Shown piece after piece: positions 9,108 through 10,274 of a DNA stretch of 64,000 nt. Under the pieces are notes generated by a model. The model saw nothing but the letters and a program-made list of their open reading frames with translations, was not told the DNA's origin and ran no database searches. A program made the translations under genes and the position numbers. Position 1 is the first letter of the stretch. Every line of letters begins with the position of its first letter. Source of the stretch: Candidatus Freyarchaeum deiterrae (GTDB taxonomy: Archaea; Asgardarchaeota; Jordiarchaeia; Jordiarchaeales; Jordiarchaeaceae); contig CP147778.1 of NCBI GenBank assembly GCA_037305845.1, positions 640,001 to 704,000 of the forward strand. The letters run 5' to 3'.

Positions 9108-9305
9108 ATGAGTAGCGATTCTGGTAAATTAAAGCTGTTTAGGTTTGTGAGTAATAGGGGCATTATGGTTAAGCAGCTTCTTGAAGAGTTAGGGTTGAGT
9201 GAGGGTTACTTTGCAGTTTTTGTGGGCGGTAAGAGAGCTAATCTTGATTCTTACGTTGACGAGGGAAGCTTTGTTATTGTTCTACCACGCATAGCTGGAG
9301 GCTAA
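9108..9305 (+). CDS. MoaD/ThiS/SAMP-type ubiquitin-like protein
   Basis: MVKQLLEELGL...AVFVGG...VIVLPRIAGG with terminal GG; likely ATG at 9108 (ORF track starts 8997). Confidence 0.85.
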   Translation: MSSDSGKLKLFRFVSNRGIMVKQLLEELGLSEGYFAVFVGGKRANLDSYVDEGSFVIVLPRIAGG

Positions 9306-9323
9306 ATATTTAGAGGGGCTAAT

Positions 9324-10274
9324 TTGATGTTGAGTTCGGAGTTTGTTTTTAAGGTGTTGGTTGTCGGTCCTAGGGAGGAGGTTAAGGATCGTTTTCTTTT
9401 GTCTATGGGTCCGGATAGTTATTTTCTGGAGTGTTTCAAGTCTATTGTGGGTGTTAGCCTTCAGGTGAATGTTGTCAATGTTAGGGGCAAAATGGTTAAG
9501 GTTCAGATTTGGGATGTTTATGATTCTCCGCCTTTCAAAGCCATGTTTCACCATTACTCAAAGGGAGCTTATGGTGCTATAGTTCTCTTAACAGAAAGAG
9601 GCGAGCATGAGGCTCCTAAATATATTAGTGAAATTTACAAGTATTGCGGGGAAATTCCGGTGCTGGTTATCATTGTGGATGAGAAAGACCCACATGAAAT
9701 CGCCCTTGAGTATGGGGACCGTTCCATTGAGGAACCAGCGAAAAGTTTGGAGATTATCTCAAAGAGAATATTTGACAGAGAAATTGAACCCGTTTATTTG
9801 CGGCTCTCATACAACGCCCTTCCCCCTTACTCGCAGCTTCTGAACCATAGAAGATTAGATAATCTAACAACCATTCCATTAAATGTACCCCTTGTAAAGG
9901 AAATATTAGAGACAATGGGATTCAAAGCTGAAAACGATGAGATAATTTTGAAAAATGAGAAAGCAACTTTCACGGTTGACCTGAGAAACGGCGAAGTTTA
10001 CATGGAACCAGCTCAGTGTGAAAATTGTGAAAGAGACTGCGTTAAAAAGGAGAAGGTGTGTATGGTTCTGGCTACCTCCGGATGGTCGAGCAGTCCAGAC
10101 ATTTCACAAGCAGACCTACTTCTAATCTCAAAAGTTTACGCCATCGCCAACAATGAAATACCACAAGAAGTACAAGAAAAAATATATGAGATTCTGAACT
10201 GTCCGAATAAGAATTCTAAAAAACCAAAAGGGAGCAGAGCACGGCGTAACAGAGTGGAAGAACCCCGAGTATAA
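9324..10274 (+). CDS. Degenerate Rab-like small GTPase fused to a Cys-rich C-terminal domain
   Basis: FVFKVLVVG, SIVGVSL, VKVQIWD, F.AM..HYSKGAYGAIV follow the Rab pattern, but G1 is GPREEVKD and G3 is DVYD; tail CENCERDC...C...C. Confidence 0.7.
   Translation: MMLSSEFVFKVLVVGPREEVKDRFLLSMGPDSYFLECFKSIVGVSLQVNVVNVRGKMVKVQIWDVYDSPPFKAMFHHYSKGAYGAIVLLTERGEHEAPKYISEIYKYCGEIPVLVIIVDEKDPHEIALEYGDRSIEEPAKSLEIISKRIFDREIEPVYLRLSYNALPPYSQLLNHRRLDNLTTIPLNVPLVKEILETMGFKAENDEIILKNEKATFTVDLRNGEVYMEPAQCENCERDCVKKEKVCMVLATSGWSSSPDISQADLLLISKVYAIANNEIPQEVQEKIYEILNCPNKNSKKPKGSRARRNRVEEPRV

Follow-up and report, generated by a model that had tools for sequence, protein, structure and literature searches.

The locus considered here raises the question of whether a small ubiquitin-like protein (Ubl) and a Rab-like protein encoded directly downstream of it act together and, if they do, which part of the Rab-like protein the Ubl engages and to what end. 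The two genes lie in a 64,000-nucleotide stretch of Candidatus Freyarchaeum deiterrae (contig CP147778.1 of assembly GCA_037305845.1, positions 640,001 to 704,000, forward strand), which we call the window and whose numbering we use throughout. We find that the downstream gene product, referred to here as the partner, joins a Rab fold devoid of nucleotide-binding motifs to a conserved cysteine domain, and that a structural model places the Ubl on that domain, with its C-terminal di-glycine (GG), by extrapolation, near a cysteine, C245, that may accept it.

An earlier note on this DNA, made from the sequence alone, had described the partner as ending in a cysteine-rich tail. The cysteines are there (C231, C234, C238, C245 and C292), but residues 185-296 form a folded domain of ~110 amino acids for which the model is confident (predicted template modelling score, pTM, 0.82), and only a short basic tail follows. 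The domain runs in the order helix, beta-meander, Cys knuckle, C245-x7-W253 and two helices. Among 120 non-redundant domains, all five cysteines are found in 109 and C245 in 119. The CxxC pair, the third cysteine and C292 are jointly gone from four of the 120, each from a different family, with C245 retained, and one entire Promethearchaeota clade is also of this knuckle-less, C245-retaining type. Because these four cysteines are lost together in four lineages while C245 stays, the cysteines, as judged from the alignment, fall into two groups, a putative four-ligand metal site that is optional and C245, which is selected on its own; the profile used could miss members from which every one of the five has gone. 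K269 is present in 107 of the 120 domains, and position 281 is E in this copy, His in 61 and D or S in others. We also considered a radical-SAM or ferredoxin reading of the knuckle and rejected it, since the spacing is variable (CxxC-x3-5-C) and the knuckle dispensable.

A profile search detected the cysteine domain in 155 of 400 Asgard genomes, all named matches being from Asgard archaea; it is mostly fused behind the pseudo-Rab domain and sometimes stands alone, and databases label family members 'hypothetical' or 'Rab family GTPase'. No diverged members were found with the query used in nine genomes (G152, G155, G160, G248, G004, G006, G011, G021 and G314), and G166 gave one weak partial match (E 0.004). 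Comparison of the C-terminal domain with Pfam, PDB sequences, Foldseek and the ESM Atlas gave no significant match, which shows neither a new fold nor an absence of relatives. Two unusual architectures were seen: in a single case (L085:3036-3839, + strand) the cysteine domain is joined to a TFIIB repeat (PF00382, E 6.7e-11), and in another (L134:979-1881, - strand) it is N-terminal, lacks C245 and precedes a region that by eye resembles a degenerate GTPase.

Prediction of the complex, proposed as a check in the earlier note, gave an interaction between Ubl and partner, with a score of 0.77 where the best control reached 0.00. Among solved pairs 58 of 80 reach the mark we applied, as do 2 of 110 mismatched ones, figures that are roughly applicable here, custom alignments having been used; the same test let through 7 of 44 blind neighbour pairs. 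The runs had at least 74% of contacts in common, with a predicted local distance difference test (pLDDT) of at least 68 for the partner. In the model, partner residues 249-256 pair antiparallel with Ubl residues 56-61, and helix 261-272 packs on L59 and P60 of the Ubl; the strand pairing supplies the strongest predicted contacts, and the interface coincides with the residues that are most conserved. Extrapolating the register would put G65 of the Ubl at partner residues 245-246. The confident part of the predicted interface lists no residue of the Rab domain. The model supports binding of the Ubl to the cysteine domain without demonstrating it, and we think it likely that the two proteins physically associate, in whatever manner.

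The Rab-like character of the N-terminus, recognized at the outset, is borne out by matches to Pfam Roc (1.1e-7) and Ras (7.3e-6), by phmmer to Rab12 (3.3e-12) and by Foldseek, whose top rows are all Rabs (E ~2e-9 to Rab35/Rab1). The three motif losses can likewise be seen in the sequence: GPREEVKD replaces G1, DVYD replaces G3, and at G4 there is no NKxD and VDEKD stands in its place, variable among orthologues; in nine Rab-like paralogues of this genome G1, G3 and G4 are all intact. The earlier note had allowed that orthologues might have intact G motifs. Among 99 non-redundant two-domain members we find G1 in one, G3 in three, G4 in two and all three in none, and the only member with an intact P-loop (P0038, L177:1282-2355, Helarchaeota) nests among degenerate ones. 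Residues 8-70 evolve with a ratio of nonsynonymous to synonymous substitution rates (dN/dS) of ~0.01-0.06 among six orthologues. Local decay was rejected, given the family-wide loss, the purifying selection and the intact paralogues; on this sequence evidence the loss is old and under selection, and the family would fall among class I pseudoGTPases. The RabF surface is what effectors read in Rabs. Of the 99 members, 74 still show a loose RabF1 pattern, 90 a loose F2 and 81 a loose F4 pattern, while G1, G3 and G4 are almost entirely gone, and the pseudo-Rab has therefore, by its motifs, kept an effector-reading surface and lost the nucleotide pocket. Of the pseudo-GTPase scaffold tied to the Ubl that had been suggested, the conserved pseudo-GTPase stands, whereas contact with the Ubl is predicted on the cysteine domain instead of the Rab fold.

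The C-terminal GG of the Ubl is invariant, and its dN/dS is ~0.1-0.3. Among solved structures the nearest to it are SAMP2, PF1061 and TtuB, with a profile match to SAMP2 at E 0.0025 and to Pfam ThiS at E 0.012; every Ubl score lies below the curated SAMP2 and ThiS cut-offs, so that we class these proteins as SAMP2-like only. In SAMP2 strand beta1 comprises residues 2-8 (PMC3701171); in 33 Ubls of SAMP2-like type the N-terminus is polar or looks helical and shows no conserved beta1, and the corresponding region of this Ubl looks degenerate. Ubls of this type occur in 252 of the 400 genomes (E 1e-5), and all families with the cysteine domain have one while families without one also lack the domain, a family-level co-occurrence that is confounded by kinship. 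A second SAMP2-like Ubl in this genome (G000:C1:2500739-2500996, - strand) has no partner gene; a UbaA-like ThiF gene is 4.5 kb away. In family f9 (L056-L071) one residue follows the GG, and in L062 (f29) two, so that proteolytic maturation would be needed; most L056-L071 Ubls adjoin RNase Z-like and TPR/SNAP-like genes. In the closest relative the orthologous Ubl is immediately preceded by a MoaD-type Ubl (L182:3241-3528), so that two GG proteins stand in tandem.

Ubl and partner are adjacent in the five partner-bearing genomes of the genus Jordarchaeum, as they are in G145 and G146 (f26), the G145 neighbourhood matching a Helarchaeota record. In G141 and G142 (f24) the Ubl sits between a full two-domain member and a stand-alone cysteine domain, and the same order is probable in G140 across a contig break. 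In a tree whose backbone is unresolved, the linked members are placed in the Jordarchaeum clade, in an f24 clade and at two points of a third clade. Adjacency links the genes in three families and not Asgard-wide; its recurrence and the predicted complex support the tie between Ubl and partner that the earlier note envisaged. A further Ubl paralogue, unlinked, is retained in Jordarchaeum and G145, which makes the linked copy look dedicated. Elsewhere, family members precede a RING-like gene and a proteasome ATPase gene (L011, L082; only the RING-like gene is seen in L081, and all RING matches are below the Pfam cut-off) or face a JAB gene (L021, L087). In family f7 (L017, L026, L028, L034-L041) the gene is conserved upstream of SLOG cluster 4 and calcineurin-like phosphoesterase genes.

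We suggest that the partner is an E2-like carrier in which C245 accepts the Ubl, a reading we consider possible and not far short of probable. By analogy with known SAMP chemistry, a UbaA/ThiF-type E1 encoded elsewhere would activate the GG end; docking on the C-terminal domain would follow, with the last Ubl strand antiparallel to 249-256 and the hydrophobic face of the Ubl on helix 261-272, and would bring G65 to C245, which could take the Ubl as a thioester in the fashion of an E2. C231, C234, C238 and C292 would form an accessory Zn knuckle, as their co-loss suggests, and the Rab domain, apparently incapable of switching, might be a static platform whose RabF motifs recruit a target or location. 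'E2-like' refers to the working of the protein and does not imply descent from E2s. The evidence points away from the substrate or E3-like role first proposed and towards a Ubl-accepting cysteine.

Several observations weigh against this. In ~50 genomes of other families (those with both gene places listed, compared by eye) Ubl and partner are on different contigs; the complex model may echo known Ubl complexes or simply fill a missing-strand edge; and the geometry of tail and C245 would fit a sulfur relay or sensor equally well, in which the Ubl is a thiocarboxylate and C245 or a metal/Fe-S site donates, receives or senses sulfur by way of a persulfide or acyl-disulfide. The identity of the nearest solved relatives of the Ubl, the requirement for SAMP2 in Haloferax tRNA thiolation (PMC3701171) and a PF01171 (TtcA/NcsA-type) gene in the genome favour such a relay; yet no sulfur-pathway neighbour is conserved, the recurrent neighbours being RING-like, proteasome ATPase and JAB genes, and an Fe-S cluster at the four-Cys site is not the core function, because that site is dispensable in several lineages. 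We regard the relay as unlikely. That the two genes are functionally unrelated, a Zn-domain pseudo-GTPase having come to lie beside a housekeeping Ubl by chance in some lineages, would fit the unlinked state of most families, the kinship behind the co-occurrence across families and the passing of the complex test by some blind neighbour pairs. However, in three families the genes are found side by side repeatedly and on separate branches, the linked copy looks dedicated where there is a second paralogue, and the predicted interface lies on the most conserved residues, so that we find chance decidedly unlikely.

The absence of a conserved beta1 from the 33 Ubl N-termini bears on a further possibility, namely that the partner is a non-covalent reader or folding partner whose strand 249-256 replaces beta1 of the Ubl, free or conjugated, with C245 and K269 serving only to shape a pocket for the GG end. 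The dominance of strand pairing among the predicted contacts and the conservation of K269 agree with this, as does the precedent of class I pseudoGTPases such as AAGAB, which are binding chaperones (PMC12490416). Nevertheless, a reader leaves unexplained why position 245 is cysteine, rather than any small residue, in all but one of the domains, and the many genomes with the Ubl and without the domain argue against an obligate folding client; we judge the idea improbable. A role as a cysteine protease, for maturation or removal of the Ubl, would suit the predicted binding of an extended tail beside a cysteine, the one or two residues after GG in many Lokiarchaeia-type Ubls and the frequency of His281. 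We think this very improbable, since 281 is E here and D or S elsewhere with no other conserved His, and His281 is mostly missing from the family whose Ubls are extended. The E2-like carrier, for its part, is made testable by the prediction of a near-invariant cysteine at a SAMP2-type tail.

The Ubl is 65 residues long and ends in RIAGG (GG codons 9297-9302); the partner has 315, from ATG 9327 to 10274 on the + strand. The intergenic distance of 18 nucleotides noted earlier holds with the alternative start TTG 9324 and becomes 21 with ATG 9327, which is more likely, as judged from sequence, because close orthologues begin MLSSE or MLESE and a GAGGGG sits upstream. The pair probably shares one transcript, because a 17-nucleotide element resembling a B recognition element (BRE) and TATA box is invariant in all columns across the upstream regions of five orthologous loci. 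A sigma-70 promoter scan, with a model unsuited to archaea, gave chance-level hits only, and a longer Ubl start at TTG 8997 was ruled out by in-frame stops there in orthologues. Homologues carry the labels Freyarchaeota, Jordarchaeum or Jordarchaeia.

Features of the Ubl-partner locus (window coordinates)
Feature	Position	Strand	Remark
BRE/TATA-like archaeal promoter candidate	9038..9054	+	~55 nt upstream of Ubl start; putative promoter
SAMP2/TtuB-type Ubl, 65 aa, C-terminal GG	9108..9305	+	N-terminus polar at the expected place of strand beta1
Shine-Dalgarno-like GAGGGG	9313..9318	+	8 nt before ATG 9327; putative function, from sequence
Rab-fold pseudo-GTPase domain, aa 1-150	9327..9776	+	without G1, G3 and G4; retains a RabF1/F2/F4-like switch surface
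Undescribed C-terminal domain, aa 185-296	9879..10214	+	predicted Ubl-binding site
CxxCxxxC knuckle (C231, C234, C238)	10017..10040	+	with C292 probable Zn site; putative metal binding
C245, near-invariant separate cysteine	10059..10061	+	candidate acceptor of Ubl C-terminus; in predicted interface
C292, probable fourth metal ligand	10200..10202	+	co-loss with knuckle
Basic, low-confidence C-terminal tail and stop codon	10215..10274	+	no prenylation cysteine

As noted earlier, no ThiF or MoaE gene is adjacent; four ThiF-family genes lie elsewhere in the genome. The Ubl gene is divergent from a gene for an XylR_N and V4R protein (8023-8694, -), not seen here in close orthologous loci, and the pair converges with a UPF0280/ApbE-like gene (PRK04334; 10320-11081, -) that is kept in Jordarchaeum, where an amino-acid-kinase-family gene often intervenes. 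Farther upstream in the window are tandem paralogues with an N-terminal folliculin/longin-like domain (514-1641 and 1895-2395, +; PF11704, E 1.7e-6 and 6.3e-5), a hydrophobic, membrane-protein-like open reading frame with a weak C-terminal PCI/winged-helix match (2658-3578, +; E 0.004) and a SNAP-like TPR protein (3622-4356, -; PF14938, E 1.7e-16).

The kinds of protein involved, a SAMP-type Ubl and a class I pseudoGTPase, are known, and the domain, the fusion and the pairing are apparently undescribed in the papers searched: searching the literature for pseudoGTPases in Asgard archaea or for a fusion of this kind returned nothing relevant, with most subscription papers outside the coverage, and a term search of the Thor-Rab paper (PMC10933270) found no mention of 'pseudo'. 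Separately from any link to the Ubl, the genomes with the C-terminal domain mark out a conserved archaeal pseudo-Rab family. It shares with Asgard and eukaryotic Rab-like GTPases (PF00071, PF08477; PMC10933270) the G-domain fold and RabF1/F2/F4-like motifs, but family-wide lacks G1, G3 and G4, carries a fused cysteine domain and has no prenylation site. Like AAGAB (PMC12490416) and the pseudoGTPase domains of p190RhoGAP (PMC5593906) it would use a GTPase fold without G motifs as an interaction surface, although it is archaeal, separately derived and fused to a predicted Ubl-binding domain.

Resemblance to E2/UBC, UEV and RWD proteins, including the canonical Asgard E2s (PF00179), lies in the order helix, beta-meander, Cys-x7-Trp, helix, helix; the partner domain differs in lacking the HPN motif, in having a putative Zn knuckle before the cysteine and in its different Ubl, and structural matches to E2/UBC folds are weak. 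Homology to E2s by sequence was tried and dropped (hhalign aligned C245 to the E2 catalytic Cys with a probability of 0.2-0.5, no better than decoys), and a comparison with the ThiF/MoeB/E1 C-terminal region was null (27 of 50 and 48 of 50 decoys reached the real score, with a small profile and no positive control). The true E2s of this genome adjoin their own E1 genes, and canonical E2s (PF00179) were found in none of six f7 genomes. With SAMP2, TtuB or ThiS and a UbaA-type E1 (PDB 5lda_B, 4hrs, 5ztb) the system shares a small beta-grasp GG protein and an E1 in the genome, the Ubl differing in its scores below curated cut-offs and its seemingly degenerate beta1 region. SAMP conjugation is reported to need only UbaA, the E1 (PMC12625751), whereas a dedicated cysteine partner is predicted here, and this family would bear on how E2-type carriers came to be added to E1-only SAMP/Urm1 tagging. 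We tentatively propose that several Asgard lineages may have a second ubiquitin-like pathway, in which a SAMP2-type modifier passes to an E2-like cysteine domain and a nucleotide-free Rab picks the target; such a pathway, which would exist even in family f7 with its lack of canonical E2s in the six genomes searched, would be separate from the eukaryote-like E1/E2/RING system and intermediate between E1-only SAMP tagging and a full cascade.
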